Counted from the first letter of the stretch, positions 5,162-61,150 are shown. The stretch: DNA of 64,000 bases from an uncultured Candidatus Saccharibacteria bacterium (GCA_964553275.1 CAZKKG010000001.1:36993-100992); one strand, 5' to 3'. Notes: generated by a model from the letters alone, not told the origin. Program-made: numbers and translations.

Positions 5162-8100
5162 CTAAAGTTTTTTAATTGCAATCCAAAGCATTTCCTTGTC
5201 AATATTAACTTCTCTCTCTATATTAAAAACACCACTTTTTCTTTCCTTTAAGATAAATTCCTCCGCCTTGGTTTCCTTTAAAACAAAGTCTTTTGAGTTT
5301 TCTAAAGCTTTATTCAAATTACCGCTTCCAGAATAAACTATTGAAATCTTATCCTTGGGTTTTAGTTTTGCCGCCTTGCGCATTTGCTGAACGTATCTGA
5401 GAACTTCCCTTGCTGTCCCTTCGCGTTTAAGCTCAGGGGTAATTTTTGTATCAAGTTTTACATCTTTTTTGATGGTATTATCAAAAACTATTTCTTTGAC
5501 ATTTATTTCTTCCCTAATCAAGTCCAGCAATTCTTTTTCAAACCCTGCTATTTTCTTCTTAATAATCAACCTCTTTAAAGGTTGGCGTACCTTTATTCCT
5601 GCAGACGATCTCTCAGCTAAACTAAGAGTTATAATTTCCCTTAGTCTTTCCATGTTCTGATTAAGTTTTTTATCAATCAATCTTTTGTCTGCTTTGGGCC
5701 AGTCGCTTAAATGAACGCTCTGCGTTTTATCCTTTGAACTCTTCACTTCCTGAAAGATATATTCGCTCAGAAAAGGAACAAATGGAGCGCTAAGATTGCT
5801 TAGAGTCAAGAGAATAAAGCCTAGAACTTGAGAAGCCTTTTTCAACTCCTGTTCTGTTCTCGGTTTCTGAAACCTTCTCCGGGATCTCCTGATATACCAT
5901 TGAGAAAAATCCTCAACCGTAAACTTCTCAAGGGCTCTGGCAGCAGAAATGATGTCATAACGATTCAACAGCTCGGTAACTTTTTCGGTCAGCTCATTTA
6001 ATTTTGACACAATCCACTTATCCAACAAATCCTTGTCTTTAACATTTATATTTAATCCGATATCTGCCTTCAAAGCAGAAGTCGTGTAGGTCTTAAAAAA
6101 GAAACAGCAGTTCCAAAAAGTCATGATAAATCTTTTCAGGCAATCTTCAACATCTTTATCTTTAAATGATTTACTATCACAAACTTGATTAATGGTATAA
6201 AAATACCAGCGAAGGGCATCGGCCCCATATTTATCAAAGATTTCAGAAGGTCTTACAATATTGCCTTTTGACTTCGACATTTTTTCTCCTTTTTCATCCA
6301 AAACGGGACCGACAGAAACTACATTCCTATACGGAGCATTAAGTCCAAGCAAGGTAGAAATAGCCAACAAAGTGTAATACCAGCCCCGAGTTTGATCAAT
6401 CCCTTCCGAAATAAAATCTGCAGGGAAAGAACGGGGAGGATTAACTTTCCCATCTTTTAAAGAGATGTAACCGTCCTTTGATGTTTTTTTAATTTCTTTG
6501 GCATTAAACGGAAAATGAACTTGAGCAAAAGGCATAGCGCCCGAATCAAACCAACAGTCAATAACATCTGGAACTCTTTTCATTTTTTTTCCGCATTCAG
6601 GACAATTAAATTCTATTTTATCAATGAACGGTCTGTGAAGATCCAAGTCCATATTGTTGTCATAAGGAAGATTTTTAAACTCTATCTTCTCAAATTCTCC
6701 GACATCTAATTTATATTTCTTGCGGAAAGAGAAGAACTCTTCATTTGAAACTCCTTTTACGGCTACCCTGAGCATACTTAAAGGCAATTCATGACTTATT
6801 ATCAAGATATTTTTACCCTTATACTTTTTCTCTATTTCTTTTAAAAAACCATAAACTCTTTTTTTAACATCAGTATAATTTTCCCCTTTAGGAAACCGCT
6901 TTTCAAAAATTTCTTCCAAATATTTACCGTAATATTGATAGGCTAATTTAACCGGTTTACCATTAAAGATCCCTGCATCAAATTCTCTCAATCTTTTATC
7001 AAATTTCGGAGAGATATCAAGCTCTTTTCCAACTATTTCTGCTGTTTGTTTGGTTCTTAATAAATCGGATGAAAAGATAATATCTATTTTTTTGCTCTTA
7101 AATCCTTTTGCTATTTTCTTAACTTGTTCTTTCCCTTTATTAGTTAACGGACATTTATTTTTTTCAGGCCAGCAACAAACAATATTTTTCTGATTTCTCA
7201 AACTATGCCCGTGCCGCAGAATATAGTAAGTGTTTACACTAACCTTTTTAGAGATTAAGTCTTTTATACTGCCCATTATCTCTCCATGTCCGCATTCCTT
7301 ACATTCCCAAATGGGCAAGGGTGTGCCCCAATATCTTTCTCGAGAAAGGGCCCAGTCTTTCAGCTCCCTTAACCACTCTCCAAACCTTCCCTCTTTTAAA
7401 TGACTCGGCACCCAATTTATCTTATTGTTGTTTTCAATAAGCTTCTGTTTTACCTGCTGCATATTAATAAACCAGCCCTGCTTGGCATAATAAAGCAAAG
7501 GAGAATGACACCTCCAACAGAAAGGGTAGTCATGCTCGTATAGTTCCTGAGTAAAAAGAAGGCCTTTATTCTTAAGATAATTTACAATTATAGATTCTGT
7601 TTCCTCGTCTTTCACATATCTTCCGGTAAGTTCTTCTTTAATTCCTTTTATAAACTTCCCTTCTTCGTTAACCGTATGGAAAGTCGGCAATCCTATTTTC
7701 TTGCCCAAAAGGAAATCTTCTTCTCCATACATTACTGCAGTGTGCACAACACCGGTTCCTTCATTGGAAGTAACAAAATCAGCAGGGTAAATTTTATAAG
7801 ATGTTGAAGTTTTTAATTGTTTTATGTCAAACAAAGGTTCGTATTCTAATCCTACCAATTGAGACCCTTTAATGATTTGAATGTTCTTCCATTGTGACTG
7901 AGCACCCTTGAATTTTTGACAGTAATTTTCAGGAAAAACTTTCTTTTTTATCATTTCCTTAAAATTATTCAAACCTAAAATAATACGATGGTTTTTCTTC
8001 TCCGGATCAGGAATGATTATATATTGGGCATTGGAATTAACAGCAAGAGCAACATTGCCGGGCAAGGTCCAGGGAGTAGTAGTCCAGGACAGGATAGAAG

Positions 8101-8746
8101 TGTTTTTCCATTTTGGGTCTGAAGATATTATATTGAAATTGATATAAACCGAATTCTCTTTAACTTTCTTATAACCCATGGCAACCTCATGACTGGAAAG
8201 AGCGGTTCCGCACCTCGCACAATAAGGAACAACTTTATACCCTTTATAAACTAACCCCTTTTGATAAATTTGTTTTAAAATCCACCAGACGGTTTCAATA
8301 TAATCCGTCGTGTAAGTGATGTAAGGATTTTTCATATCCATCCAGAAGCCGGCTCTTTCGGTTACTCTTTCAAAATCTTTTTTGTAAGTCCAGACTGATT
8401 TTCTACATTTTTTATTGAATTTACTAATGCCGTACTTCTCAATATCCTTTTTATTCTTAAGCCCCAATTTCTTTTCTATCTCAAGCTCCACAGGAAGACC
8501 ATGAGTATCCCAACCCGCTTTTCTCTCAACTTTAAATCCTTGCATGGTTTTATACCTGCAGACAAAATCTTTAAAAATCCTAGCCAAAACATGATGTATC
8601 CCGGGTCTGGCATTGGCCGTAGGGGGTCCTTCATAAAAAATAAAATCAGACGCTCCTTTGCGTTGTTTTATGCTCTTTTCAAAGATTTTGTTCTTATTCC
8701 AGAATTTTAAGATATTTTCTTCTGTTTTAGGAAAATTCATTCGCAT
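5162..8746 (-). CDS. ileS: isoleucine--tRNA ligase with embedded histidine-phosphatase-like insertion
   Basis: 1194 aa. HIGH-region (PPTANARPGIHHVLARIFKD), KMSKS (KMSKSKGN), zinc knuckles WECKECG ... CPECG and DCWFDSG. About 190 aa between the zinc-knuckle halves carry RHG (YILRHGHSLRN) and ISHELP motifs of the histidine phosphatase superfamily. Confidence 0.9.
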   Translation of the reverse strand: MRMNFPKTEENILKFWNKNKIFEKSIKQRKGASDFIFYEGPPTANARPGIHHVLARIFKDFVCRYKTMQGFKVERKAGWDTHGLPVELEIEKKLGLKNKKDIEKYGISKFNKKCRKSVWTYKKDFERVTERAGFWMDMKNPYITYTTDYIETVWWILKQIYQKGLVYKGYKVVPYCARCGTALSSHEVAMGYKKVKENSVYINFNIISSDPKWKNTSILSWTTTPWTLPGNVALAVNSNAQYIIIPDPEKKNHRIILGLNNFKEMIKKKVFPENYCQKFKGAQSQWKNIQIIKGSQLVGLEYEPLFDIKQLKTSTSYKIYPADFVTSNEGTGVVHTAVMYGEEDFLLGKKIGLPTFHTVNEEGKFIKGIKEELTGRYVKDEETESIIVNYLKNKGLLFTQELYEHDYPFCWRCHSPLLYYAKQGWFINMQQVKQKLIENNNKINWVPSHLKEGRFGEWLRELKDWALSRERYWGTPLPIWECKECGHGEIMGSIKDLISKKVSVNTYYILRHGHSLRNQKNIVCCWPEKNKCPLTNKGKEQVKKIAKGFKSKKIDIIFSSDLLRTKQTAEIVGKELDISPKFDKRLREFDAGIFNGKPVKLAYQYYGKYLEEIFEKRFPKGENYTDVKKRVYGFLKEIEKKYKGKNILIISHELPLSMLRVAVKGVSNEEFFSFRKKYKLDVGEFEKIEFKNLPYDNNMDLDLHRPFIDKIEFNCPECGKKMKRVPDVIDCWFDSGAMPFAQVHFPFNAKEIKKTSKDGYISLKDGKVNPPRSFPADFISEGIDQTRGWYYTLLAISTLLGLNAPYRNVVSVGPVLDEKGEKMSKSKGNIVRPSEIFDKYGADALRWYFYTINQVCDSKSFKDKDVEDCLKRFIMTFWNCCFFFKTYTTSALKADIGLNINVKDKDLLDKWIVSKLNELTEKVTELLNRYDIISAARALEKFTVEDFSQWYIRRSRRRFQKPRTEQELKKASQVLGFILLTLSNLSAPFVPFLSEYIFQEVKSSKDKTQSVHLSDWPKADKRLIDKKLNQNMERLREIITLSLAERSSAGIKVRQPLKRLIIKKKIAGFEKELLDLIREEINVKEIVFDNTIKKDVKLDTKITPELKREGTAREVLRYVQQMRKAAKLKPKDKISIVYSGSGNLNKALENSKDFVLKETKAEEFILKERKSGVFNIEREVNIDKEMLWIAIKKL

Positions 8747-9814: not shown

Positions 9815-10157
9815 GGGGATGAAATGTTTCGATGGAACGTTTTTTTAAAACAAGCAAGCCGAGCATTATAGGTTATCTCGTTAAACTGCCTATTAACGTA
9901 TAAGTGCTAACTTATTCAAACAACCCGCATTGGCTTACGCATAATGCCGTTCTCTTGCTGATTCTCGATAGGCAAGATGAACGCTATATTTCGAGATAGG
10001 CGATTGTTTTGTCTCAAACAATCGTTGAAAAATAGAGGCAAAGCGCAGAAGAATTTTACCTGTTTTCCTATCCTCTGCTCTTAAATAAAACAGGTTAAGC
10101 TTGTAGATTTGTTTTAAAAATAATTCCAGACGGGGATTCACCTCCCCCATCTCCACC
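9815..10157 (+). ncRNA. ssrA: tmRNA (ssrA), about 343 nt
   Basis: Begins 2 nt after the smpB stop. The 5' GGGGAUG (9815-9821) pairs perfectly, with one G-U, with 3' CAUCUCC (10148-10154), followed by A-CC (CCA not encoded). T-arm GGGGA-UUCACCC-UCCCC (10131-10147). Internal tag ORF 9906-9944: GCU AAC UUA UUC AAA CAA CCC GCA UUG GCU UAC GCA UAA, giving (A)NLFKQPALAYA*. Confidence 0.7.
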
Positions 10158-10667
10158 TTGATTAGAAAACCATTAGCCAACAATCAAATAAGGTCAAGAG
10201 AGGTAAGAGTTGTTGACGAGAACGGAAAGCAATTGGGAGTTTTAAAATTAGAAGATGCGCTCAAAATGTCTTTAGAGCGCGATTTAGATTTAGTTCAGGT
10301 TACAGAAAAAGTTAATCCTCCTGTTTGCAAATTAATGCACTATGGAAAATACTTGTACCAGATAGAAAAAAAAGAAAGGGGAATAAAAAAGAAAAGCGGA
10401 GGGGAAATAAAAGGAATAAGATTAAGTTTCAAAATATCCGACCATGATATGCAGACAAAAGCAAAAAGAACAGTAAAGTTTCTAGAGCAGGAAAATAAGG
10501 TAAGGATAGAATTGCGTTTAAAAGGAAGGGAAAGAGCTTTAGGAGATTTTGCAAAACAAAAAGTAAACAAGTTTCTTGATATCCTAAAGGAATCAACCCC
10601 CTACAGGATTGAGAGAGAATTAAAAAGACAGCCTCGGGGACTGACGGTAATAATATCAAAATCATGA
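10158..10667 (+). CDS. infC: translation initiation factor IF-3
   Basis: 169 aa. IRSREVRVVDENGKQLGVL ... conserved IF3 N and C domains. Non-AUG start: TTG at 10158 immediately followed by ATT at 10161. Begins 1 nt after the tmRNA 3' end. Confidence 0.9.
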   Translation: MIRKPLANNQIRSREVRVVDENGKQLGVLKLEDALKMSLERDLDLVQVTEKVNPPVCKLMHYGKYLYQIEKKERGIKKKSGGEIKGIRLSFKISDHDMQTKAKRTVKFLEQENKVRIELRLKGRERALGDFAKQKVNKFLDILKESTPYRIERELKRQPRGLTVIISKS

Positions 10668-12472: not shown

Positions 12473-13480
12473 TTATTTCTCTATGTCCAAAATAATTCTT
12501 ACAGGATTGGTCAAGGCATGAAGATAAAATTTAGCATCTTTATTTAAGGCGATAGTATATCCTATGGCTTGATCGTCATAAACTTTGTTACGAACATAAG
12601 AAGCCACGACTTCGTGATCAACCATAATCGGTTTTTCAACCTGATTATCAGTAAGGTCTCTTCGAATACCGTTTATTACCAAACCAATTGTCTTGGCACT
12701 ATGAGCATAAAAAGCTTCAGTAAAAGGTATAACTATATAATTTTCTTCTGAGCCATATTGATCTGTTATATCAAAAACAAACCTATAATAATCCTCATGG
12801 TCAGCACGTCTAATAAGGTTCAATCCCTGTCCATCGGTTGGTTCACCAACTTGTTGTTTATCAAAGGAATAATTCTCTGGCGAGTAAGTATCAGATTCAC
12901 TTACTACTTCAATAAATTTAAAAGTTTTTGCAATTTTCTCCATATGATTTTTATCGACAATCAAAACAAATGTGTAATATTCTGTTCCCGAAATATTAAT
13001 TGATTGAGGAAATGCGGTTATTAACGCCATTGCACCCTCTTCCGATTCTGGTTGATCTTCCGACGGTATAACTAAACAAGCATCTTGGCCTTGAATTTGT
13101 GAACTCTCAATTTTTGGTTGAGAACCGTAGGGATTAAGCTTATGATAAGCTAAATCTTTACAAACTTCATTTATATCTTTCTCGGTTGCCGACATAAATG
13201 AAAAGAATCCCGTCTCACCTCCATATCTATAATATCCTTTATCTTCATCCCCATATCCTTCAATTGGTTGCCAATTTTCTGGATATTTAATTTCAAACCC
13301 GTGCTCTTCATTTCTGTATGTCTCCCAATCAGCAGTTTCGTCTTGAGATTCTCCTGGCTCTCCAGTAGAGGGTTTTTCTCCTGGGGCATAATAATAATTG
13401 TAAACCACAACCCCTCCGGCTATTACCAATAGAGCTATTAGGACACTTAATATCATTGAGATTCCTTTTTGTTGATTCAT
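12473..13480 (-). CDS. hypothetical secreted protein (paralog A)
   Basis: 335 aa. N-terminal signal/anchor MNQQKGISMILSVLIALLVIAGGVV, then STGEPGE..DETADWETYRNEEHGFEIKYPENW, nearly identical to the neighbouring paralog. Confidence 0.55.
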   Translation of the reverse strand: MNQQKGISMILSVLIALLVIAGGVVVYNYYYAPGEKPSTGEPGESQDETADWETYRNEEHGFEIKYPENWQPIEGYGDEDKGYYRYGGETGFFSFMSATEKDINEVCKDLAYHKLNPYGSQPKIESSQIQGQDACLVIPSEDQPESEEGAMALITAFPQSINISGTEYYTFVLIVDKNHMEKIAKTFKFIEVVSESDTYSPENYSFDKQQVGEPTDGQGLNLIRRADHEDYYRFVFDITDQYGSEENYIVIPFTEAFYAHSAKTIGLVINGIRRDLTDNQVEKPIMVDHEVVASYVRNKVYDDQAIGYTIALNKDAKFYLHALTNPVRIILDIEK

Positions 13481-13523: not shown

Positions 13524-14438
13524 TTATTTTATATTTACCGAAGATACCTCTGAATACTCACTTTCATTACCATCTCTATCAGCTGAAGTAATCTTATAGT
13601 AAAGAGTGCCTGTGTCTTCTGGTATATTATAGTCAACAGCAGTATGAGCAGATTGAGGGAATAATTCAATTATCTTCTCCCAAGGACCTCTCTCACTTTC
13701 AGCTCTGTAAACATTAAAATAATCAGCTATCTCATAGTTCCAATTTATCTGAACATAAGGTGTGGCACTATCCCCTAAATATGATAGTACTGGAATATTA
13801 GGAACAAGTAGTTTTACGTCAATTAATTTAAAACTATAGACCATTTGCTCAAAAACTGATGAAAAATCGTCACTGTTTACTGTCTCAGCATAGCTAATTA
13901 CAAAAAACTTATCGCCGTATTTATCATTACTCGAAATAATAACTTCCGGCCAACCAGTTCCAAAACCTACTAATCTTATAATTTTTACAGCATTTAATCC
14001 ATTAATATTTATTTCTTGGAAAGAAAATGTATTTTCGTCTCCATATTTAGGGCCAGTAATAATATCATTTAAGTTAAGCTTCGGTGCAGTATTATCCCAA
14101 ACCTTAAAACTAATTCTTACTCCCTCTTCATCCACACAACCCTCACAAGGACCACCAGTACTTATGTATAATTCACCATCAATATTTTGAAGCTCTATGA
14201 CATCGTTTTCATAATAATGTTTTTCATACCAATCTTCTGGATATTTCACTTCAAATCCATACTCCTCATTTCTGTATGTCTTCCAATCAGCAGTTTCGTC
14301 TTGAGGTTCTCCTGGCTCTCCAGTAGAGGGTTTTTCTTCTAAGGTAGAATAGTAATTGTAAGCTACGACTCCCCCAGCTACTATCAAGAGAGCTAACAAG
14401 ATGCTTAATATTGTTGAGATTCCTTTTTGTTTGTTCAT
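13524..14438 (-). CDS. hypothetical secreted protein (paralog B) with C-terminal FN3-like domain
   Basis: 304 aa. Same N-terminal ~65 aa as paralog A. C-terminus YRAESERGPW...YYKITSADRDGNESEYSEV looks fibronectin-III-like. Confidence 0.55.
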   Translation of the reverse strand: MNKQKGISTILSILLALLIVAGGVVAYNYYSTLEEKPSTGEPGEPQDETADWKTYRNEEYGFEVKYPEDWYEKHYYENDVIELQNIDGELYISTGGPCEGCVDEEGVRISFKVWDNTAPKLNLNDIITGPKYGDENTFSFQEININGLNAVKIIRLVGFGTGWPEVIISSNDKYGDKFFVISYAETVNSDDFSSVFEQMVYSFKLIDVKLLVPNIPVLSYLGDSATPYVQINWNYEIADYFNVYRAESERGPWEKIIELFPQSAHTAVDYNIPEDTGTLYYKITSADRDGNESEYSEVSSVNIK

Positions 14439-14588
14439 AAGATTGACTTAAAGACTTTTGATTAAAACCTTATTATTTTAATTTTGCATTCGTTAAAAAA
14501 CGAAAAACCTCTTATCTCCTTTTAATTAGAATATGACAACCCAACTTAATACCCGAGCCATCACAAGTCTTTTCTCTAATCCAATATC

Positions 14589-17500
14589 CTATCTACCTCT
14601 TAATAATTCCTTTATTCCTTTTACCAATTCCGAGAAAGTCTGAGAGATATTGGCCAGTCGACCTTTTATATTCCTTAATATTAATGGTTCCTCTTGCTCC
14701 TGCTCAGTAATACTAAACTTACCAGACCAATTTCCAACAAGCCCAGTGGAGTTAATAATTACTATTTTATAATCATCTGCAGGGTCAACTGAACCATTTA
14801 AGGAAGTACCTACTTCCCAAGAATACTTACCTAGAGAAGCAGAAACATTCTCTGCTATTGTCTTTCTATCACCTCCTAAATACGGACCTATTGAAATAGT
14901 AATTAGTCCCTCTCCCTCTGCCTGCCATGTAATATCATGAGTATCTCCGATATACCATCTGTCTCCTCCCTTAGGCGAAGTAATATTAACTGAAGTAACA
15001 AAGTCAACTGTAAAATATCCGTTTAGAATATCTTCAACAGCCGTCCTTGTTTCTGTAGAATCTAATACCTCTTTCAGTTTAATCTTGTATTTTACAGGAA
15101 GAGTTGAAAAGGTTGAAAATATATCAGATTGGCTGGGAACCCAAGAAAGACCAGCCGTTCTTTCAGAAACTGTCATTATCTTTTTCCAATCATCAATTTG
15201 GTTTCCATTATTGTCGTAACCTCCAAGAGAAATATCTATTTCACTTCCCGTCCAGTTGCCTTTTTCCCAATCAATATACAAGTATTCGTTTTTAGTTATT
15301 TGTTCTCCTCCTTTAGGCGAGGTAATGATAATAAAGGGAGATTCTTCTATAGAAGGAGGTTCTTCGATAACTTCAACAATAACGGAATCTTTAGTTGTAT
15401 TATCACTCTCATCGGTAACAACGAATTCAATAGTATAAGTCCCTGCTTCACTATAACTATGAGTAAACGTTACAAATATATGGTTATTCGAATCTATTGT
15501 ATATTCATCTGGATTTGCTATCTCAGATACGTCTTCATAACCCCAAGATACTGTACAAGTTAAAGATTCATTTTCCGGATCATGCATTTCAATTATCCAA
15601 GTTCCTTTCTCATTTGTTTCAAGTTGAGCAGGAGACTGAATGCTATCTATGACAGGAGGAAGATTCCCAGGCGGTTCAGATACGATGCTAAAATAGTTAT
15701 CTGAATCATCGCTATAGAAATGAGAGCCTTCTGTGCATCCAACAACAATTTTATAGCGGGCATCCGGATCAATATCGCTTGATATCTCCCAGGAATAAAA
15801 ACCTTGAGAAGCAGAAATATTCGAAACTATCGTTTTTCTCAAACTTAGACCATAGAGATAAATTGTTACCTTATCTAGTCCATTTGATTCCCAAGTAATA
15901 TCGTATGTTTCTCCGATTACCCATTCCTCTCCTCCGTTGGGCGAGATAACGGTAAGAAGGGTTTCAAAATCAATGGTAAAGTAATCATCTGAAACATCTT
16001 CAATAATATCAGTTTCGCCATTTGTTTCTTTTATCTTAATCTTGTATTCATCAGGGAAGGTTGAAAAACTTGAAATTACAGAATCGTTAATACGGGGCAG
16101 CCAAAATATAAATTCTCGATCAGCAGAAACACCTGCTTGAATCACTTTCCAATCATCAATCTGTTTTCCATTCTCATCGTATCCGGCAAGAAGAATATCT
16201 ACTTCTTTTTCCTCCATTTCTACTTGCTCCCAAACAATTCTGGATGATTTTGTCACACGAAATATTCCTCCGTTAGGAGAAACAACGGTTATAGAAGGAG
16301 CAACAACAAAGTCAACTGTAAAATATCCGTCTGAAATGTCTTCGGCAGCCGTCCTTGTCTCTGTAGAATCTAATACCTCTTTTAATTTGATATTGTATTT
16401 TACAGGAAGAGTTGAAAAAGTTGAGAATATGTTAGATTGGCTGGGAACCCAAGAAAGACCGGCTGTTCCTTCAGAAACTGTAATTATTTTTTTCCAATCA
16501 TCAATTTGGTTTCCATTCTCACTATAACCGCCAAGGGAAATGCCTACCTTATTTCCTAACCAATTATATTTTTCCCAATTAATATATAAATACTCATTTT
16601 CAGTTATTTGCTCACCCCCTTTTGGCGAAGTAATAACAATGGAAGGGTCAAAATCAATAGTAAAGTAATCATCTGAAACATCTTCAATAATATCAGTTTC
16701 GCCATTCGTTTCTTTTATCTTAATCTTGTATTTTACAGGAATAGATGAAAAACAAGAAGGTAGATTTAAAGGAGCATTGGATGGTGTCCAGTAGAAATAT
16801 CCTTGTGCCGTAGAAACTTCTGTCTCAATTAACTTCCAATCATCAGTCTGATTTCCATTACTGTCATAACCGCCAATAAAGACATCAAGCTGTGAATATA
16901 TATTGCCTTCTGAAGTCCACAAAATTTTGTGCTTTTCTTTCCCGCTCCATTTTTCTCCTCCATTAGGAGAGATAACAGTAAGAGAATCTTCTACGGGGTA
17001 TAAAAATTCGCCGTAAAAATTAGTATGTCGGGAATCGTGATAAAATACTGGCCACTCATTGTCCTCAGACTTTCCATCCATATCCCAAACCAATAGACTG
17101 CCAGCTGTAGTATATGTCATTAGTTCATTTTTTCCATCGCCATCTATATCACCCATTGGAGAGCCTGTCCCAAAAACAGTCTGGTTTAGTTTTACAGGAA
17201 AATTCTGTACAACAGACCCGTCCGAGCTATAAGCAAAAAGTTCGGACAATTCTCCTCTGGGAACGTTAATATCACCGTCTACAATGGCTATTGAGATTTC
17301 GTTTTCAATGTCTGTATCCAGGTCACCAAGTAAGGGATGACTTGAAGAATCGCCTCCGTCTCGGTAACTGTAATCGCGAATAGGGAACCCATCTGCTTCT
17401 TGCCATCCTTCATCTCTTTTTTCAAACAAGTGCAGACCTTGGCCATAATTTGTTATCATTGCTATTTCTAATTTTCCATCTTTATCAATATCACCTACAC

Positions 17501-20500
17501 TTAAACCATTAATATGCGAAAGATTTGCGATAGGAATAAAATCTAACACAGAACCATCCCAAGAGTAGATATAAATTCCATCTAATGTCCCTAATACTAT
17601 TTCTGTTTCATCATCATCATTCATGTTACCTAAAACACTCTTAACGTATTTTCCATGCGCCTTGGGCCAACCATCAAGAATATTTCCTTTGTGATCCAAT
17701 AAATAGAGCTCATTAAAAAATATTGATATTAACTCTCCGTATCCGTCATTATTTAAATCGGCCACGGCAATTGACTCTTTTGGAAAGGAGCCACCAGGAT
17801 AGGCAGGAAATCCTTCTAAATAATTTCCGTTTACATCTACGGCATACACATACCCTGACAAGTTGTAAAACATCATTTCAAGCTCCCCGTCTTTATTTAT
17901 ATCTTCTATGCTTACTGGACCTATATAGGGATACTTAGAATCAGAGAGTTTTTTGGGCCATCCATCCCAATAAGTTCCATCGTAATTCAGAATATGCAGA
18001 TATCCAGCATTGTCTCCAACTACTATTTCATTGTGCCCGTCTCCATTTAAATCAGCTACAGCCGGTCCCGACTGCATCATCCCGCCCCAAATATTATAGG
18101 GATTTGTTATTTCTCTTGGCCAACCGCTTACATAAGAACCATCATGAGTAAAAACATGAATATTTTTACCATAAGCAATAATTATATTATCTTGTCCGTT
18201 GTTGTTTATATCTGCTAAAGTTGGCTGTCCGTTGAGAGGTAATACATATCCTTCAAACCCTTCTATAGTATCTATTTCTTTTGGCCATCCTTCATGAATA
18301 GCCGGATCAATGTATATTTTAATATCCTCTACTTGCTCCTGCCTGTCTTCAAAATAGACTGTTAATTTTAAATAGTGATACCCGGGATTAGTAAAAGACG
18401 CAACATTCCATTTTCCTAAAACATTTTGATTCACTGGGTAATTTCCATTGTCCGTGAGAATTATTTCTTTGTCAGTACAATTGACATAATTTTCATCACA
18501 CCATTCAATGGTATAATTTTTAAAACCAAAACCCATTACCTTGCCTTCTATATTTATTTCCTCCCAAGTCGGGAGCACTTCTCGAGCCTGTCGAAGCTGC
18601 CAATTAGTCCAATTGGCCTCTCCTCTGATATCTTTAGGATAGGTTATTTTTATGTTATCCAAATTAACGAACCCAAATTCTTCGCTTTCCTCAGTCCCCA
18701 TTTTCGCAATTAATTTCAATGTATATTCCCCATCTTCCAGATATCTGAGATCCCAATTGCACAAAGTATCATCTGTAACAACAGCTAGACCGCTGCATAT
18801 TTCTATCCAATCTTTAGCTTCTGGATCTTTCCCGTTCACGTAATAAAGATTAAAACTATCACCAGCAACGGTTCCCTTGACGTTAAAATTCTCACCATCA
18901 ATTTCTACCGGGTTATATAAAACAGCTACAGAAGGTTTTTCAGCTTGAACTGCTTTTAAGACGTCTATCATGCCATAACCTTGAGTATATATGTCATAAC
19001 CTAAGTCTAAGGCAGTATTTCTTAAAACCATCTTTATTTCTTCCGGACTCCAGTCGGGATGGGCTTGTTTAATTAAAGCTGCTGCTCCGGCTATATGAGG
19101 GGTGGCCATGGAGGTTCCAGAGATGGAAGTATGCTCGTCGTCAAAACATTTCTTATCATTCCAAGCAGAGTCCCACTGAGAAGAACAGATTTCAACACCC
19201 GGGGCAACAACGTCCGGTTTGACTCCTGCAGCAGTGGGCCCTCTAGAACTAAACTTTGCGATTTTATCATCGCAATATGTATGAACCCCCACTTGATCTG
19301 TCATACAAGAAGCTCCTACGGTCAACGCTTTTCTGGCAGTGCCAGGAGAACCTATGGTTTCATACCCGTTACCGGAATTTCCAGCCGCTACTACTGCTAT
19401 GACTCCAGCCTTAACAGCCTCGTCTACAGCTAATGATGGTGGATCATCCTGATGGCAATATACAGGATTAAAACATCCTAAGCTCAAAGAAATAATATCA
19501 GCATGATCTGAATAATCACCATCCTGATTAGGATCAACTGCTATTTCAATGCCTGCTATGACTTGATCAAATGTTCCTGAACCAGAATCATTCAAGACCT
19601 TATATGCCAATAATTTAGCATCGGGCGCAACTCCTTTTAAATTTCCATTACTGGCAGCAATTCCAGCACAATGAGTCCCGTGACCATGATCATCCATTGG
19701 GTCTGAATCATTGTTGATAAAATCATAACCGCCAATCACCTTACATCCGCTCCCCAAACACCCGCCCAAATCAGGATGGGTATAATCTATACCCGTATCT
19801 ATTACAGCAATAGTTATTCCCTCACCTGTATAGCCCAAATCCCAAACTTCATCAGCCCGAATTAATGAAACAGAATCCGTTAACAGAGCTCTGACTTTAT
19901 AGTTTGGAAAGACTTCTTTAATATAATCTAATTTTTCAATCTCTTCTGCTTCTTCCTGAGAAATATCTAAAGCGATACCGTTGAAAACATGTTTAAATTC
20001 TCTTTCAATTTTCTGATCAAATCCAGAAATCTTTGCCTTGAGTTGAGTCTTATAGGATTGAAATGTCAAATTTAAATCACTTCTATAGGAATCAAATTGA
20101 GCACTTTCTTGAACAGAGGTTATTGCCTTCTTTTCTGCTTGATTATGAAGTTCTTGCCACTCACTTATAAGTGATTTCTCTTTAAATTGTATTATATAGC
20201 CTTGGAACTCAGATTCTTCAAGCCCGGCTTCTTCTGGAATAAGTTCCAGAGACTCTTGAGGAATATCCTCAAAAGTTTCATAAACTCCTGCCTCAGCTTT
20301 CTCCGTTAAATATATTCCTGCGTGCTCCCCAGACAGTATAGTCACTTCTTGTTGGGTTTTCTGTTGAGTTTCAGCAGTTTGCGATTCTTGACTCTCGTTT
20401 GCTTCTGGCAATGGTTCTTTCTTTCCTAATGATGCCTCCTCTCCACAGGAAACACATTGATCCTTGTAAAGCTCATTTAGCTTTTTCAAAGTCATGGAAC

Positions 20501-20957
20501 CTACAAACCCAGTAGCTTCTTCTATCTTCCATGGTACTAATATATCTTCTCTGTACTTCTTTTGAAAACGATTCACTGCTTTTTCGGTTAATGGTCCAAA
20601 ATACCCACTCACTATCCCTTCGGGATAGATTTCCGGGTCTTGTTTTAACATCTGTTGAAGTTTTTCGACCTGCTCTCCGCTGTCTCCGTATCTTAACGTT
20701 GATGTCAACGGCTTAATTTCTTGTTCTGGCTTCTCATTGTCCTGAGATTTATTAGAATCTTCCTCGTCTTCACCTACCTCCTTTTGATCCTCCACTGGTT
20801 GCTGCTGGAGCTGATCAAATCTTTGTTGAATTTGAACAATTTGCTCTTTGAGTTCTTCAATTGTAATTGTTTTTGTTGTTGCTTTAACAACATCCGAGAA
20901 AAAGAAGCAAACGACAAGAATTACTAAAAGATAGAGAAAGGTTTTCTTGTTTTTCAT
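14589..20957 (-). CDS. giant secreted subtilisin-like (S8) serine protease with PG-binding, FG-GAP, Kre9/KNH-like and PKD-like repeats
   Basis: 2122 aa. Signal peptide. Peptidoglycan-binding-like segment (LRYGDSGEQVEKLQQML...GYFGPLTEKAV). Subtilase triad (AVIDTGIDYTHPDLGG; HGTHCAGIAAS; GTSMATPHIAGAAAL). Five or more FG-GAP-like DxNxDGxxE repeats. Six ~105-aa repeats with I.SP.GG..W..G....I.W signature. One PKD-like module. Confidence 0.85.
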   Translation of the reverse strand: MKNKKTFLYLLVILVVCFFFSDVVKATTKTITIEELKEQIVQIQQRFDQLQQQPVEDQKEVGEDEEDSNKSQDNEKPEQEIKPLTSTLRYGDSGEQVEKLQQMLKQDPEIYPEGIVSGYFGPLTEKAVNRFQKKYREDILVPWKIEEATGFVGSMTLKKLNELYKDQCVSCGEEASLGKKEPLPEANESQESQTAETQQKTQQEVTILSGEHAGIYLTEKAEAGVYETFEDIPQESLELIPEEAGLEESEFQGYIIQFKEKSLISEWQELHNQAEKKAITSVQESAQFDSYRSDLNLTFQSYKTQLKAKISGFDQKIEREFKHVFNGIALDISQEEAEEIEKLDYIKEVFPNYKVRALLTDSVSLIRADEVWDLGYTGEGITIAVIDTGIDYTHPDLGGCLGSGCKVIGGYDFINNDSDPMDDHGHGTHCAGIAASNGNLKGVAPDAKLLAYKVLNDSGSGTFDQVIAGIEIAVDPNQDGDYSDHADIISLSLGCFNPVYCHQDDPPSLAVDEAVKAGVIAVVAAGNSGNGYETIGSPGTARKALTVGASCMTDQVGVHTYCDDKIAKFSSRGPTAAGVKPDVVAPGVEICSSQWDSAWNDKKCFDDEHTSISGTSMATPHIAGAAALIKQAHPDWSPEEIKMVLRNTALDLGYDIYTQGYGMIDVLKAVQAEKPSVAVLYNPVEIDGENFNVKGTVAGDSFNLYYVNGKDPEAKDWIEICSGLAVVTDDTLCNWDLRYLEDGEYTLKLIAKMGTEESEEFGFVNLDNIKITYPKDIRGEANWTNWQLRQAREVLPTWEEINIEGKVMGFGFKNYTIEWCDENYVNCTDKEIILTDNGNYPVNQNVLGKWNVASFTNPGYHYLKLTVYFEDRQEQVEDIKIYIDPAIHEGWPKEIDTIEGFEGYVLPLNGQPTLADINNNGQDNIIIAYGKNIHVFTHDGSYVSGWPREITNPYNIWGGMMQSGPAVADLNGDGHNEIVVGDNAGYLHILNYDGTYWDGWPKKLSDSKYPYIGPVSIEDINKDGELEMMFYNLSGYVYAVDVNGNYLEGFPAYPGGSFPKESIAVADLNNDGYGELISIFFNELYLLDHKGNILDGWPKAHGKYVKSVLGNMNDDDETEIVLGTLDGIYIYSWDGSVLDFIPIANLSHINGLSVGDIDKDGKLEIAMITNYGQGLHLFEKRDEGWQEADGFPIRDYSYRDGGDSSSHPLLGDLDTDIENEISIAIVDGDINVPRGELSELFAYSSDGSVVQNFPVKLNQTVFGTGSPMGDIDGDGKNELMTYTTAGSLLVWDMDGKSEDNEWPVFYHDSRHTNFYGEFLYPVEDSLTVISPNGGEKWSGKEKHKILWTSEGNIYSQLDVFIGGYDSNGNQTDDWKLIETEVSTAQGYFYWTPSNAPLNLPSCFSSIPVKYKIKIKETNGETDIIEDVSDDYFTIDFDPSIVITSPKGGEQITENEYLYINWEKYNWLGNKVGISLGGYSENGNQIDDWKKIITVSEGTAGLSWVPSQSNIFSTFSTLPVKYNIKLKEVLDSTETRTAAEDISDGYFTVDFVVAPSITVVSPNGGIFRVTKSSRIVWEQVEMEEKEVDILLAGYDENGKQIDDWKVIQAGVSADREFIFWLPRINDSVISSFSTFPDEYKIKIKETNGETDIIEDVSDDYFTIDFETLLTVISPNGGEEWVIGETYDITWESNGLDKVTIYLYGLSLRKTIVSNISASQGFYSWEISSDIDPDARYKIVVGCTEGSHFYSDDSDNYFSIVSEPPGNLPPVIDSIQSPAQLETNEKGTWIIEMHDPENESLTCTVSWGYEDVSEIANPDEYTIDSNNHIFVTFTHSYSEAGTYTIEFVVTDESDNTTKDSVIVEVIEEPPSIEESPFIIITSPKGGEQITKNEYLYIDWEKGNWTGSEIDISLGGYDNNGNQIDDWKKIMTVSERTAGLSWVPSQSDIFSTFSTLPVKYKIKLKEVLDSTETRTAVEDILNGYFTVDFVTSVNITSPKGGDRWYIGDTHDITWQAEGEGLITISIGPYLGGDRKTIAENVSASLGKYSWEVGTSLNGSVDPADDYKIVIINSTGLVGNWSGKFSITEQEQEEPLILRNIKGRLANISQTFSELVKGIKELLRGR

Positions 20958-21044
20958 AATATTATTTATTTCTTGTTAGTTTTTGACAAAAGTTGATAAC
21001 TTGCTTCAATATATAACTTTCTTTCATATATTAAAAGGTAAATC

Positions 21045-22787
21045 TCATATTTCTACCTCCTTTCTCTTCAAAACATTAATTAGTTTTTCTAAAGACAAGG
21101 TATTTATAATATCACCCTTTTCAGCCCATCCCCTTCTTGCTTGAAAAACACCAAATCTCATATTCTCCAACTGGCTAATATGGTGAGCATCTGAATTAAT
21201 AATCATTTTAATTCCCATTTCCTTTGCTATCCTTATATTTCTTTCATTTAAATCTAATCTTTTAGGATGAGCATTTATTTCCAAAACCACTCCGAAATCC
21301 TTAGCTGCTTTAAAAATCTTATCCCAGTCGGCCAAATATTCATCTCTCTGCTTAATTAACCTGCCCGTTGGATGGGCTAATATTTTAACATAGGGGTTTT
21401 TCATAGCTTTGATGATCCTTCTTGTCATTTCTTTTCTAGACATTTTAAAACTTGAATGCACTCCAGCAATAACATAATTAAGTTTTTTTAAAGCTTCATT
21501 CTTTATATCCAGCGAACCATCATTTAAGATGTTTGTTTCTGCCCCTTGTAAAATCTTAAATTTAACATTTGACATTTGAAACTTGGCATTTAACTTGTCT
21601 ATCTCCTTTCTCTGTTGGAAAAGTTCCTTCTCGTTTAATCCATGTTCTATTCTTAGAAACTTAGTATGATCGGAAATTCCTAGATATTGATACCCTATAT
21701 CAATACAGGCTTTTGCTATTTCTATAATATTGTCTGTTCCTCCATCCCACGAAGAATGGGAATGTAAGTCACCTTTTATATCTTCTAACTCTACTAATTC
21801 GGGCAGTTTTCCTTTGAGAGAAGCTTCTATTTCTCCTTTGTCCTCTCTAATTTCAGGAGGGATCCATTGTATGCCCAGAGATTCATAAACTTCTCTTTCG
21901 TTTTTTCCAGCTACCATCTTCTTACCTTTAAAAACTCCGTATTCATTCAACTTCAATCCCTTACTCATGGCTATCTTTCTTGTCCCAATATTATGTTCTT
22001 TGGAACCGGTAAAGTATTGTAAAGCTGCTCCGAAACTCTCTTTAGGGACAACTCTTAAATCAATCTCGAGACCTTGTCTTGTTCTGACAGATGATTTTGT
22101 TTCTCCTTTGCCCCAGATTTTTACAACACCAGGCATAGAAACAAAAAAATCCATTATCTTTTTTGGATTTTTTGTTGATATTAAAAGGTCTACATCGCCT
22201 ATTGTTTCTTTTCTTCTCCTGACAGATCCTGCTTCCGAAATGTTCTCTACTTCCTTTATTCTCTTAAATTCTTCTTTTATCTTTTCAACTTTTGCCAGCA
22301 CGTCTCCTAAAAGAAATCTCCCTTTGCTTTTCTTTAAAAAAGAAATACTCTGTAAAATGTTTTTTTCTGTTTTTTCCCCGAATCCGGGCAATTCTGCAAT
22401 CTTGTGCGACTTAGCTGCTTTTTCCAGGTCTTTTAAATTTCTTACTTTCAGTTTTTCATAAAGTATTTTTGCCATTCTCGGACCCACTCCCTCAACTGAA
22501 ATTAATTCCTCCATTTTGATAGGCGTTTTCTTTTTCAGTTCTTGGTAATATTTAATTTTTCCAGTTCTTAAATATTCTTCAATTTTTTCAGCAATACTTT
22601 CTCCAATTCCGGGAATTTTTTCTAAAGCATCTTTTCCTCCCTGAATATAGATTTTAGAAACATCTTTCTCTAAATTATCCAATTCCAAAGCAGCTTTCCT
22701 ATAAGCATAAGGTCTAAACTTTGCCTCTTCTGTTTTTAGAAGATTGGCAATCTCATAAAAGATTTTAGACAGTTCCTGATTTTTCAT
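21045..22787 (-). CDS. DNA polymerase X family protein with C-terminal PHP domain
   Basis: PolX N-terminus MKNQELSKIFYEIANLL, HhH/pol-beta core (GIGESIAEKI, GDVDLLI), PHP motif GDLHSHSSWDGG. The ORF-track start at 22856 adds 23 aa overlapping the upstream gene, so the start at 22787 is preferred. Confidence 0.8.
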   Translation of the reverse strand: MKNQELSKIFYEIANLLKTEEAKFRPYAYRKAALELDNLEKDVSKIYIQGGKDALEKIPGIGESIAEKIEEYLRTGKIKYYQELKKKTPIKMEELISVEGVGPRMAKILYEKLKVRNLKDLEKAAKSHKIAELPGFGEKTEKNILQSISFLKKSKGRFLLGDVLAKVEKIKEEFKRIKEVENISEAGSVRRRKETIGDVDLLISTKNPKKIMDFFVSMPGVVKIWGKGETKSSVRTRQGLEIDLRVVPKESFGAALQYFTGSKEHNIGTRKIAMSKGLKLNEYGVFKGKKMVAGKNEREVYESLGIQWIPPEIREDKGEIEASLKGKLPELVELEDIKGDLHSHSSWDGGTDNIIEIAKACIDIGYQYLGISDHTKFLRIEHGLNEKELFQQRKEIDKLNAKFQMSNVKFKILQGAETNILNDGSLDIKNEALKKLNYVIAGVHSSFKMSRKEMTRRIIKAMKNPYVKILAHPTGRLIKQRDEYLADWDKIFKAAKDFGVVLEINAHPKRLDLNERNIRIAKEMGIKMIINSDAHHISQLENMRFGVFQARRGWAEKGDIINTLSLEKLINVLKRKEVEI

Positions 22788-23424
22788 TTTCTTCTCCGTT
22801 AAAGATGTTTTTAATATTGATTTTGAAACCTTGGTCAAAAACACCGCTAATATCATTTCTTAAACGGAGGAGTAAAAGAGTACCGATTAACCCTGAAATT
22901 CCAACAGTAATGAAAACGGGGTCAAAACCGAATTTACTTACCGCCCACCCTCCTAAAAGTCCTGTAATTCCAATACCCATTCCGCTTGCAGTATCGCTTA
23001 TGGCCCATTCGGTAGCTTCTTTGCCTCTATCAATATGTCTTGTAAAAATTGCAGACCATCCAGAAAGGCTGACAGCCATAGCTACAGCGTGAACCGTCTG
23101 TAAGGCATAAATATGTGCAGGCGTTCTGGCAAATATGAAGCCGAAAGGAACGAGAGCAGCAATAAATAATCCCGTGGTTACAAACCAGTAGTCATCTTTT
23201 TCCCCTAAGCATTTATCTAAGAACAACCCTATGGGAGTTCTTAGGGCAGATCTCAAAATCCAGTAAATACCTGCTGCTGCTCCAGCAACAAAAACAGAAC
23301 CACCTTCAATTCTTTCTACAATAAAAATGGAAAATATAGGAGTAATTAACCCCCAACCGCTCCAAAAGGCAAGGTCACTTAAAATTAAATATTTGATTAT
23401 ACGACTAACTTTCATCCTAAACAT
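22765..23424 (-). CDS. six-TM membrane protein resembling one half of an MFS transporter (possible gene remnant)
   Basis: 219 aa with six predicted hydrophobic helices and Gly-rich helix faces. No partner half upstream; the upstream gene is divergent rtcA. Confidence 0.45.
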   Translation of the reverse strand: MFRMKVSRIIKYLILSDLAFWSGWGLITPIFSIFIVERIEGGSVFVAGAAAGIYWILRSALRTPIGLFLDKCLGEKDDYWFVTTGLFIAALVPFGFIFARTPAHIYALQTVHAVAMAVSLSGWSAIFTRHIDRGKEATEWAISDTASGMGIGITGLLGGWAVSKFGFDPVFITVGISGLIGTLLLLRLRNDISGVFDQGFKINIKNIFNGEENEKSGTV

Positions 23425-61125: not shown

Positions 61126-61150
61126 GAAGCCCCCTTCGGGGCTTTTTTAA
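61126..61150. terminator. bidirectional intrinsic terminator
   Basis: gaagcccc-ttcg-gggcttttttaa between convergent jag and the 61147 gene. Confidence 0.7.

Follow-up and report, generated by a model that had tools for sequence, protein, structure and literature searches.

A predicted pre-pro-subtilase of a Patescibacteria bacterium that joins a protease-propeller cassette to a wall-binding repeat scaffold

The minus strand of a 64,000-nucleotide stretch of DNA from an uncultured Candidatus Saccharibacteria bacterium (GCA_964553275.1 CAZKKG010000001.1:36993-100992; hereafter the window, with positions counted from its first letter) carries a single uninterrupted open reading frame (ORF) at 14589-20957, which comprises 2122 codons and encodes a product identical to protein P0126. 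This product is probably a Sec-exported, wall-associated pre-pro-subtilase of a Patescibacteria (Parcubacteria-like) bacterium. The gene is a chimera, in which a cassette of an I9 propeptide, an S8 protease domain and an FG-GAP propeller lies between the peptidoglycan-binding head and the repeat tail of a protein of another family, termed here PGB-Kre9-helix after its PG_binding_1 domain, Kre9-like repeats and C-terminal helix. Among modular wall-associated subtilases, a known kind of protein, it has a new domain architecture, made from two abundant unstudied families; it is not a new kind of system. The initial annotation had described one 2122-residue ORF with a signal peptide and with peptidoglycan-binding, S8, FG-GAP and Kre9-like modules, which the ORF call and the Pfam and sequence analyses confirmed; its further idea of a phase- or antigen-variable surface organelle is not supported. 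The segments of the protein, in order from the N-terminus, are as follows.

14589-20957 (-): whole ORF, predicted pre-pro-subtilase of 2122 residues (ORF call and translation)
20880-20957 (-): Sec-type signal peptide, residues 1-26 (MKNKK, hydrophobic core, VKA/TT; read from the sequence)
20802-20876 (-): heptad (coiled-coil-like) helix, residues 28-52, followed by an acidic linker, residues 53-92 (heptad pattern)
20463-20681 (-): PG_binding_1 domain, residues 93-165 (Pfam)
19890-20198 (-): Inhibitor_I9 propeptide, residues 254-356 (Pfam, 34.9 bits)
18963-19889 (-): Peptidase_S8 catalytic domain, residues 357-665 (Pfam, motifs, Foldseek)
18288-18962 (-): two β-sandwich domains after S8, residues 666-890 (strands predicted by AlphaFold2; without a Pfam match)
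16998-18287 (-): FG-GAP β-propeller region of eight repeats, residues 891-1320 (Pfam, loop motifs, AlphaFold2)
16644-16985 (-): R1, long Kre9_KNH-like repeat of the R1-like type, residues 1325-1438 (alignment, hhalign)
16296-16643 (-): R2, long repeat of the R2/R5 type, residues 1439-1554, paralogue of R5 (alignment)
15954-16295 (-): R3, long repeat of the R3-like type, residues 1555-1668, probable conversion donor (alignment)
15666-15953 (-): R4, short canonical Kre9_KNH repeat, residues 1669-1764 (Pfam, 38.7 bits alone)
15336-15665 (-): PKD-like module, borderline, residues 1765-1874 (Pfam PKD_4)
14994-15335 (-): R5, long repeat of the R2/R5 type, residues 1875-1988 (alignment; colinear with P0163)
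14682-14993 (-): R6, short canonical Kre9_KNH repeat, residues 1989-2092 (Pfam, 38.3 bits alone)
14592-14681 (-): conserved C-terminal amphipathic/heptad helix, residues 2093-2122 (AlphaFold2 and hidden Markov model)

The protease core resembles secreted subtilases

Pfam analysis of the whole protein assigned Peptidase_S8 (PF00082) to residues 378-662 with 215.1 bits (cut-off 21.8) and Inhibitor_I9 (PF05922) to residues 254-356 with 34.9 bits (cut-off 21.2), the latter being new relative to the initial annotation, whose S8, FG-GAP and peptidoglycan-binding assignments found support in the same scan. The PG_binding_1 model (cut-off 23) matched residues 93-136 of the whole protein with 30.8 bits and gave 34.6 bits for the isolated segment, and the module is a predicted peptidoglycan binder. 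The D/H/S triad is intact, as had been reported, and consists of D387 (DTG), H426 (HGTH) and S616 (GTSMA), with N527 at the oxyanion position; the triad and oxyanion columns are invariant in an alignment of 58 family sequences. The N-terminus reads as a Sec signal peptide and has the same layout as the N-termini of P0163, P0188 and P0200.

The core (residues 250-1324) was modelled by AlphaFold2 from the 58-sequence alignment, with a mean predicted local distance difference test score (pLDDT) of 87.8 and a predicted TM-score of 0.73. In the model, the I9 domain packs ahead of S8 with a pLDDT of about 80-94, and the two are joined by a low-confidence loop (model residues 105-111, corresponding to residues 354-360; pLDDT <50), so that an autoprocessing site may lie at about residues 354-360. 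The modelled S8 domain adopts a subtilisin α/β fold, with a target TM-score of 0.90-0.91, a root mean square deviation of 2.2 Å and 38% identity against subtilisin BPN' in Foldseek. The strands of the two following β-sandwiches occupy model residues 428-524 and 551-634 (about residues 677-773 and 800-883) with a pLDDT of about 90, and tblastn found this segment (residues 666-890) in 13 related loci. Among PDB entries, Vpr (8jmw, E 1.3e-63) was the best sequence match and Tk-SP (3afg) the second, and the Foldseek search likewise returned Vpr (8jmw, E 9.5e-38), Tk-SP (3afg/9ues) and classical subtilisins; no PDB entry in either search covered S8 and propeller together.

Like the present protein, the Bacillus enzymes Vpr (8jmw), the best match of solved structure for I9 and S8, and WprA are secreted pre-pro-subtilases (extracellular or wall-associated) with C-terminal β domains, but both lack its FG-GAP propeller, Kre9 repeats and PG_binding_1 domain. 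Once WprA has been processed, a fragment derived from its propeptide remains bound to the wall, a precedent for an N-terminal anchor upstream of the cleavage site. Vpr is reported to form fibrils (PMC10657474), and nothing suggests likewise for the present protein. Tk-SP of Thermococcus kodakarensis (3afg, 9ues) is an S8 enzyme with an N-terminal propeptide and a C-terminal β-jelly-roll, but it is archaeal, has ~660 residues and is without propeller, repeat stalk or wall anchor. The Foldseek list also held the streptococcal and lactococcal cell-envelope proteinases and C5a peptidase (7edd, 5xyr), large wall-anchored S8 enzymes on an immunoglobulin (Ig)-like or fibronectin type III (Fn3)-like stalk, which have a protease-associated (PA) insert in addition to Fn3 domains and end in an LPXTG sortase signal. 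In the present protein, neither PA nor Fn3 was matched by Pfam, and the C-terminus (...ELVKGIKELLRGR) has neither LPXTG nor a transmembrane segment; a sortase-anchored enzyme of the cell-envelope proteinase/ScpA type was rejected for its missing LPXTG, hydrophobic segment, PA and Fn3.

No curated NCBIfam cut-off was reached, either by the protease or by its PGB-Kre9 relatives; the best NCBIfam match of the protease was the mycosin of the type VII secretion system, at 162 bits. A dedicated maturation protease, which would process specific envelope or pilus precursors of its own cell, as mycosins or secretion-associated subtilases do, instead of breaking down bulk protein, would agree with this match, with a propeller that could confer narrow substrate choice and with two membrane-anchored PsbP_2-like proteins encoded directly downstream. 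It is nevertheless quite unlikely, since the mycosin score lies far below the cut-off of 278.75, no genes of a type VII secretion system were seen in the scanned ORFs of the window, the neighbours are not kept beside homologues in 81 related loci, and between these neighbours and the gene lies a terminator-like hairpin.

The S8+FG-GAP core is shared by CPR and DPANN lineages

The propeller region matched FG-GAP_3 with 69.5 bits and FG-GAP with 54.7 bits in Pfam. Each of its repeats has a Dx[DN]xDG-like calcium loop and a GWP-like motif, and the loops lie at residues 916 (degenerate, read by eye), 969, 1019, 1067, 1111, 1156, 1212 and 1270, with a spacing of 44-58 residues; the count is thus made up of seven regular-expression matches and one degenerate loop. 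AlphaFold2 predicted the region to be all-β, with a pLDDT mostly of 85-97, and the eight FG-GAP repeats suggest eight blades.

Searched against 5.8 billion proteins, the full-length sequence returned its own 90% cluster, followed by more than 2600 proteins that align with only about half of it, the part running from I9 through the propeller; the best non-self match covers no more than 57%. The named members of this S8+FG-GAP family come from Woesearchaeota, Nanoarchaeota, Aenigmatarchaeota and Buchananbacteria, or bear the generic labels "archaeon" and "bacterium". Among GTDB representatives, the full-length relatives belong to Woesearchaeota and Pacearchaeota (38-40% identity), followed by Berkelbacteria (35%), Patescibacteria (33%), Levyibacteriota (28%), and Saccharibacteria and Omnitrophota (26%), and matches labelled Polyangia, among others, were also found. 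Members such as P0002, P0005, P0047 (Buchananbacteria), P0011/P0082 (Woesearchaeota) and P0103 (Aenigmatarchaeota) share the I9, S8, two-β-sandwich and eight-repeat core at 37-54% over ~1000 residues, and in this family the triad and the calcium-loop aspartates are invariant, as they are here. The tails vary among a transmembrane helix, dockerin, CARDB, PKD, a β-helix and a C-terminal peptidoglycan-binding domain (P0070). Among the matches listed outside the protein's own cluster, none combines an N-terminal coiled coil and a peptidoglycan-binding domain with a six-repeat Kre9 tail and a helix. One relative, P0005 (47% identical), is encoded in a bacterial context, in the order LigA, gatC, protease gene, gatA and bacterial phenylalanyl-tRNA synthetase. 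At this locus (L084, 9685-15327), the protease gene splits gatC from the amidase (gatA-like) gene, a pair that is usually adjacent.

Both ends of the protein belong to a separate family of wall proteins

A query with R1-R4 found a family distinct from the S8+FG-GAP proteins, the closest members being P0163, P0164, P0174, P0188, P0194 and P0200, of 275-760 residues. In these proteins, a signal peptide precedes a QLQQQ-type heptad helix and PG_binding_1; Kre9-like repeats of both the long and the short type follow, in some cases together with PKD, and many members end in a conserved helix, IENQLASISEAISxLxExIKELLxR. Residues 294-540 of P0163 align colinearly with residues 1874-2120 of the protease (R5, R6 and the helix) at 74% identity, and residues 2-175 of P0163 align with residues 3-172 at 33% identity. 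The same head, repeats (with or without PKD) and C-terminal helix are seen in P0163, P0164/P0174, P0192, P0213, P0222, P0227, P0231 and P0465, which differ from the protease in having 275-1500 residues and neither protease nor propeller; an apparent repeat copy-number polymorphism is found in one of them, and none was seen in the protease gene.

A hidden Markov model of the terminal helix, run against 282 collected proteins, matched the protease's own 90% cluster (13 sequences) and 17 others, always at the extreme C-terminus; among the S8+FG-GAP matches it was strong in the protease's own cluster only and weak in P0091. The window contains a single copy of it. When R6 and the helix were searched against 1.84 billion representatives, further helix-bearing proteins with Kre9 repeats were recovered, one with a peptidoglycan-binding domain and none with a protease. 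Heptad helices are carried at both termini of the protease.

Because the ends match the PGB-Kre9 family and the middle matches the S8+FG-GAP family, the comparisons indicate that the gene is a chimera, and that the N-terminal 170 and the C-terminal 800 residues belong to a family of short wall proteins of Patescibacteria. The GC content at third codon positions is 0.18-0.34 in all segments, within or slightly below that of sampled window genes (0.24-0.34), and gives no sign of recent fusion. The gene is a clear example of how ultrasmall bacteria of the candidate phyla radiation (CPR) build large surface enzymes by domain shuffling, with a protease-propeller cassette of CPR and DPANN lineages placed in a lineage-specific wall-binding repeat scaffold.

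The tail is a string of two types of Kre9-like repeats

Six units of the tail open with [IV]xSPxGG. Four of them (R1, R2, R3 and R5) are of a long type of ~114 residues, and two (R4 and R6) of a short type of ~100 residues. Kre9_KNH (PF10342) matched the whole protein with 68 bits, whereas in single scans R4 and R6 alone passed, with 38.7 and 38.3 bits, and R1, R2, R3 and R5 had no Pfam match. A comparison by hhalign of a profile of 13 long repeats with a profile of 19 short repeats nevertheless gave a probability of 99.7% (E 1e-25), and all six repeats are therefore homologous Ig-like modules, four of which form a divergent subtype; the six Kre9/KNH-like repeats of the initial annotation thus stand as homologues, although only two of them pass Pfam alone. 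Compared to the short type, the long type has two insertions, GGYDxNGNQIDDWK and a PxxxxxSxFSxxP loop. The proposed PKD-like module is borderline: PKD_4 gave 27.4 bits for the isolated segment but 24.6 bits in the whole protein (cut-off 27), and PF00801 was below threshold.

AlphaFold2 modelled the tail with a mean pLDDT of 80, and near 90 for R1-R4, as a string of β-sandwiches ending in a 30-residue helix (tail-model residues 772-801). The PKD segment, with a pLDDT of 34-65, is the sole poorly modelled part of the tail. Foldseek matched the tail to generic chains of Ig or macroglobulin domains, and provided no specific functional lead.

The initial annotation had regarded the Kre9_KNH module as normally fungal, which does not hold: the short repeat alone matched 3995 representative proteins at E<=0.001 in a metagenome-derived library, and the named matches of the Kre9-like repeats were bacterial or archaeal. 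Tandem arrays of the module are very common in that library, despite the fungal name. In a set of giant proteins of 2,800-6,500 residues (P0403-P0415), up to 54 stretches matched the short Kre9_KNH-like repeat. R4 and R6 match the N-terminal Ig-like model of fungal Kre9/Knh1 and of Ser/Thr-rich glycosylphosphatidylinositol (GPI) proteins (PF10342), the fold module alone being shared, and the fungal name is no guide to what the module does in this protein. Membership in the fungal Kre9/Knh1 or GPI-protein group was rejected, as the window is bacterial, a Ser/Thr-rich region is missing and the C-terminus is an amphipathic helix rather than a GPI signal.

An old duplication and a short conversion tract within the repeats

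Two pairs of similar DNA segments lie within the tail, neither being assigned a strand.

14997-15296: R5 copy, paired with 16305-16604 (84% over 300 nt)
16305-16604: R2 copy, paired with 14997-15296
15964-16074: R3 copy of the conversion tract, paired with 16648-16758 (90% over 111 nt, with a 47-nt exact run)
16648-16758: R1 copy of the conversion tract, paired with 15964-16074

These intragenic repeats are real and far beyond chance. The R5/R2 pair, aligned in register at an offset of 1308 nt, is 88% identical over 221 nt, and the R3/R1 pair, at an offset of 684 nt, is 94% identical over 90 nt. The initial annotation had paired 14995-15215 with 16305-16525 and 15966-16055 with 16649-16738; these are true repeats, but the coordinates are 1-2 nt out of register, where the identity is 27-31% instead of 88% and 94%. 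Its R1/R3 block is identical in protein sequence as claimed, but over 27 rather than ~30 residues. The description of both pairs as nearly identical in DNA was an overstatement, as the longest exact runs are 29 nt (R2/R5) and 47 nt (R1/R3), and the figure of ~90% protein identity for R2 and R5 drops to 82.5% over the whole unit, with 83% DNA identity.

The long repeats fall into three subtypes that recur in other proteins: R1-like repeats are found in P0188, P0194, P0200 and P0184, the R2/R5 type corresponds to repeat b of P0163, and R3-like repeats occur in repeat a of P0163 and in P0164. R2, R5 and repeat b of P0163 are equidistant from one another, with 94, 93 and 93 of 114 residues identical and site patterns of 9:8:8. 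This mutual equidistance dates the R2/R5 duplication to about the time at which the P0163 lineage split off; it is old rather than recent.

The R1/R3 block tells a different history from that of R2/R5. Its 27 residues are identical, with two synonymous differences in the DNA, while its flanks are ~45-50% identical, and it spans two different subtypes; the C-terminal 27 residues of R1 thus represent a short tract, of about 90-110 nt, acquired by gene conversion. The block ends in YFTIDF, an ending that recurs in the R3-like repeats of P0163 and P0164 but is absent from R1-like repeats of other proteins, and this distribution makes R3 the likely donor and R1 the likely recipient. The recent duplication or gene conversion that had been proposed is thus borne out as conversion between R1 and R3, but not as a recent origin of R2 and R5. 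The gene offers a dated case of intragenic repeat evolution, in which an old duplication is joined by a brief tract of conversion and, in a relative, by an apparent change in copy number.

The architecture is constant in the sampled population

The 13 sequences of the protease's 90% cluster derive from ENA, JGI and NCBI; their contigs span 1.6-138 kb, and the 11 complete sequences lie on contigs of 24-138 kb. All 11 complete variants (11/11) have 2122 residues and no indels; 17 sites vary among them, and no two differ by more than 13 residues. The architecture is fixed in the sampled population. The window aligns colinearly with the same-strain locus L001 over 9.4 kb; 35 differences separate the two, none of them an indel, and the 31 substitutions within the gene amount to 23 synonymous and 7 nonsynonymous codons. 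These data point to purifying selection rather than an arms-race signature. Twenty of the 31 substitutions, nearly all synonymous, are concentrated at about 19265-19515 (S8 codons 482-564), the rest of the gene being mostly identical; this patch has the appearance of a segment that recombination brought in from a more divergent strain.

The constancy of the product also bears on the assembly. Short-read metagenome assemblies can collapse or mis-join repeats, and the relatives P0164 and P0174 show a length difference of this kind, so that the repeats or the fusion of protease and tail might be thought to stem from mis-assembly. However, the same 2122-residue product is encoded on at least 11 contigs of 24-138 kb from ENA, JGI and NCBI, the comparison with L001 is free of indels, and the repeats, at 83-90% identity with exact runs of no more than 47 nt, are too divergent to collapse. 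An assembly artefact is excluded for practical purposes.

The initial annotation had proposed a phase- or antigen-variable surface organelle, in which near-identical intragenic repeats would drive frequent changes in repeat number or cassette exchange. Such variation could draw on the intragenic repeats of 84-90% DNA identity and the one demonstrable conversion tract, as well as on the 9 of 17 amino-acid polymorphisms that fall in the tail and on a related PGB-Kre9 gene, which differs between P0164 and P0174 by one 639-nt repeat pair. Against it stand the uniform length of the 11 variants, the 23:7 ratio of synonymous to nonsynonymous codons between strains and the age of the R2/R5 duplicate, together with the lack of simple-sequence repeats, long homopolymers, above-chance promoter inverted repeats and mutagenic bias at the gene, and of silent cassettes in the 64 kb window. 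Tandem Repeats Finder detected no simple-sequence tract in the gene and 340 nt upstream, where it found only an 8-mer of 2 copies and a 17-mer of 2.1 copies, and the gene and its upstream region have no A/T run of 8 nt or more and no G/C run of 6 nt or more. A tblastn search of the window for silent cassettes, with the tail and its relatives as queries, matched only the gene itself. With a uniform 2122 residues and no simple-sequence repeats, promoter-flanking inverted repeats or extra cassettes, the gene gives no support to programmed phase or antigenic variation, which we regard as highly improbable. The repeats have more probably evolved by ordinary unequal recombination and gene conversion, with no programmed variation system.

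Two specific mechanisms were considered and rejected. For an invertible promoter, the inverted repeats are short (16-25 nt), imperfect, scattered and at chance level, and none brackets the promoter. For mutagenic retrohoming by a diversity-generating retroelement, the R2/R5 mismatches lack an adenine bias: of the 47 mismatches in 300 nt, 41 are transitions and 6 transversions, and all four bases are affected evenly.

P0164 (741 residues) and P0174 (528 residues) come from the same locus in two metagenomes (L082, 1557-2854, and L083), adjoining cas2-cas1-rpsT. The locus is 97-99.9% identical between the metagenomes and differs by one 639-nt pair of a long and a short repeat, the two copies of which are 99.7% identical over 659 nt. 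The length difference is either a real copy-number polymorphism or an assembly difference. In L082, a 122-nt tandem duplication lies just upstream of the P0164 gene.

Proposed mode of action

We propose that the peptidoglycan-binding domain would hold the exported zymogen on the cell's own peptidoglycan, where I9 would fold, chaperone and inhibit S8 before being cut off at about residues 354-360. The calcium-loop propeller might then place protein or glycan ligands beside the active site, with the ~800-residue string of Ig-like repeats serving as a spacer or stalk, and the terminal helices might keep the mature enzyme attached or oligomerised. Its role would be extracellular proteolysis, either for the acquisition of peptides and amino acids or for the remodelling of the cell's own or a host's surface proteins. 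The PG-binding anchor is N-terminal to the propeptide, and canonical autoprocessing would therefore release the mature enzyme from the wall. The heptad helices at both termini, the C-terminal one of which is conserved with the scaffold family, suggest retention by helices, and we put forward with low confidence that they retain or oligomerise the mature enzyme.

Several points weigh against the wall-associated subtilase and the non-programmed evolution of its repeats. The only recognisable wall anchor sits upstream of the propeptide, and P0070, with its peptidoglycan-binding domain at the C-terminus, shows a more conventional arrangement. The S8+FG-GAP and PGB-Kre9-helix families are experimentally uncharacterised and reach no NCBIfam cut-off, the closure of an eight-blade propeller is predicted from the repeat count, and the cell's own wall and a host wall are indistinguishable as targets. 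As to the population, the 11 variants may stem from related samples and are probably short-read assemblies, which rare length variants within a population would escape.

An effector of episymbiosis, in which the peptidoglycan-binding domain, the propeller or both bind a host envelope and the protease opens the host surface layer, overlaps with the reading as a wall-associated subtilase and differs in the target alone. Many CPR and DPANN lineages are epibionts. The S8+FG-GAP core occurs in both, the organism is a Patescibacterium, and the ~800-residue tail, modelled as separate β-sandwiches, suits reach away from the cell. There is also a precedent hypothesis in the SPEARE proteins of Nanohaloarchaeota, giant extracytoplasmic serine-protease/adhesion proteins proposed to breach the host surface (PMC6642349). 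On the other side, the core is also found in lineages labelled Omnitrophota, Polyangia and others, no partner genes are conserved among the 81 related loci, selection is purifying with no arms-race signature, and the restriction-endonuclease domain that defines SPEARE proteins, their transmembrane anchor and laminin-G are absent. We consider the host as target, which agrees with all that was observed, a possible but rather unlikely alternative. SPEARE proteins carry a transmembrane anchor, laminin-G, a toxin-like region and a cytoplasmic domain of type III restriction enzymes (PMC6642349); identity of the present protein with SPEARE was rejected, these defining domains being absent from its Pfam scan and sequence. 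Literature searches found no description of the S8+FG-GAP or PGB-Kre9 family, SPEARE being the only conceptual parallel.

A more speculative reading, which we regard as unlikely, is that the signal peptide, heptad helix, PG_binding_1, Kre9 repeats and C-terminal helix together make up a new display scaffold of Patescibacteria that captured an S8+FG-GAP cassette of CPR and DPANN lineages, and that the terminal helices pair or oligomerise and so tether the mature protease after loss of the propeptide and the peptidoglycan-binding domain. If so, the C-terminal helix would be a new anchoring or sorting signal, and the S8+FG-GAP cassette would serve ultrasmall episymbionts of both domains of life as a mobile "surface-processing" module. 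The S8+FG-GAP proteases and PGB-Kre9-helix proteins are, in any case, abundant targets for studying how CPR cells gain peptides or handle host surfaces.

Genomic context

The window encodes a full-length tmRNA at 9815-10158 (+) (Rfam, 107 bits; ARAGORN reported none), and is therefore bacterial. It also encodes L20, PolX, RtcA/RtcB, UvrB, DnaA, a Mur ligase and a class A penicillin-binding protein, the last two of which indicate that the cell makes a peptidoglycan wall. The closest named relatives of its isoleucyl-tRNA synthetase (IleRS) are labelled "Patescibacteria group", Parcubacteria, Paceibacterota, Pacebacteria and Nealsonbacteria, with generic "bacterium" labels and one "Humimicrobiaceae", not placeable, as exceptions. 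These relationships support a CPR origin of the window, in agreement with the lineage assumed at the outset.

The region around the gene has the following features.

20958-21044 (-): upstream intergenic region of ~88 nt, with a promoter-like site and a 17-nt direct repeat
14532-14565 (-): terminator-like hairpin directly after the stop codon (consensus scan only)

The promoter-like site lies just 5' of the gene at 20989-20961 (consensus scan). In the same ~88-nt region, the 17-nt direct repeat (20996-21031, 2.1 copies, 84% match) could be a candidate regulator-binding site. The hairpin after the stop codon suggests a monocistronic gene. The neighbouring genes are two membrane-anchored PsbP_2-like paralogues, PGA_cap and PolX, and in a tblastn search with these four against the 81 related loci only the same-strain locus L001 matched.

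The PsbP_2-like pair, at 13524-14438 (-) and 12473-13480 (-), lies directly downstream of the protease gene, each member having an N-terminal transmembrane anchor. Their first ~70 residues are almost identical and then diverge, as in tandem paralogues with a homogenised 5' end. On the other side of the gene, the match of a 219-residue ORF at 22765-23424 (-) to MFS_1 is confined to the first half of that model; this ORF, which shares ~90 nt with the beginning of the PolX ORF, may be a truncated transporter gene.

The IleRS (5162-8746 (-), 1194 residues) carries a His_Phos_1 (histidine phosphatase) domain at residues 508-675, inside its catalytic tRNA-synt_1 domain. This domain (PF00300) is present in all of its 120 best relatives (120/120), the named ones being mostly Patescibacteria, and the insertion is therefore lineage-wide and no local oddity. 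Towards the other end of the window, a 496-residue protein with two T4SS_pilin stretches and dnaA are encoded close to each other (61147-62637 (-) and 57546-58892 (-)), and the window is probably near the replication origin.

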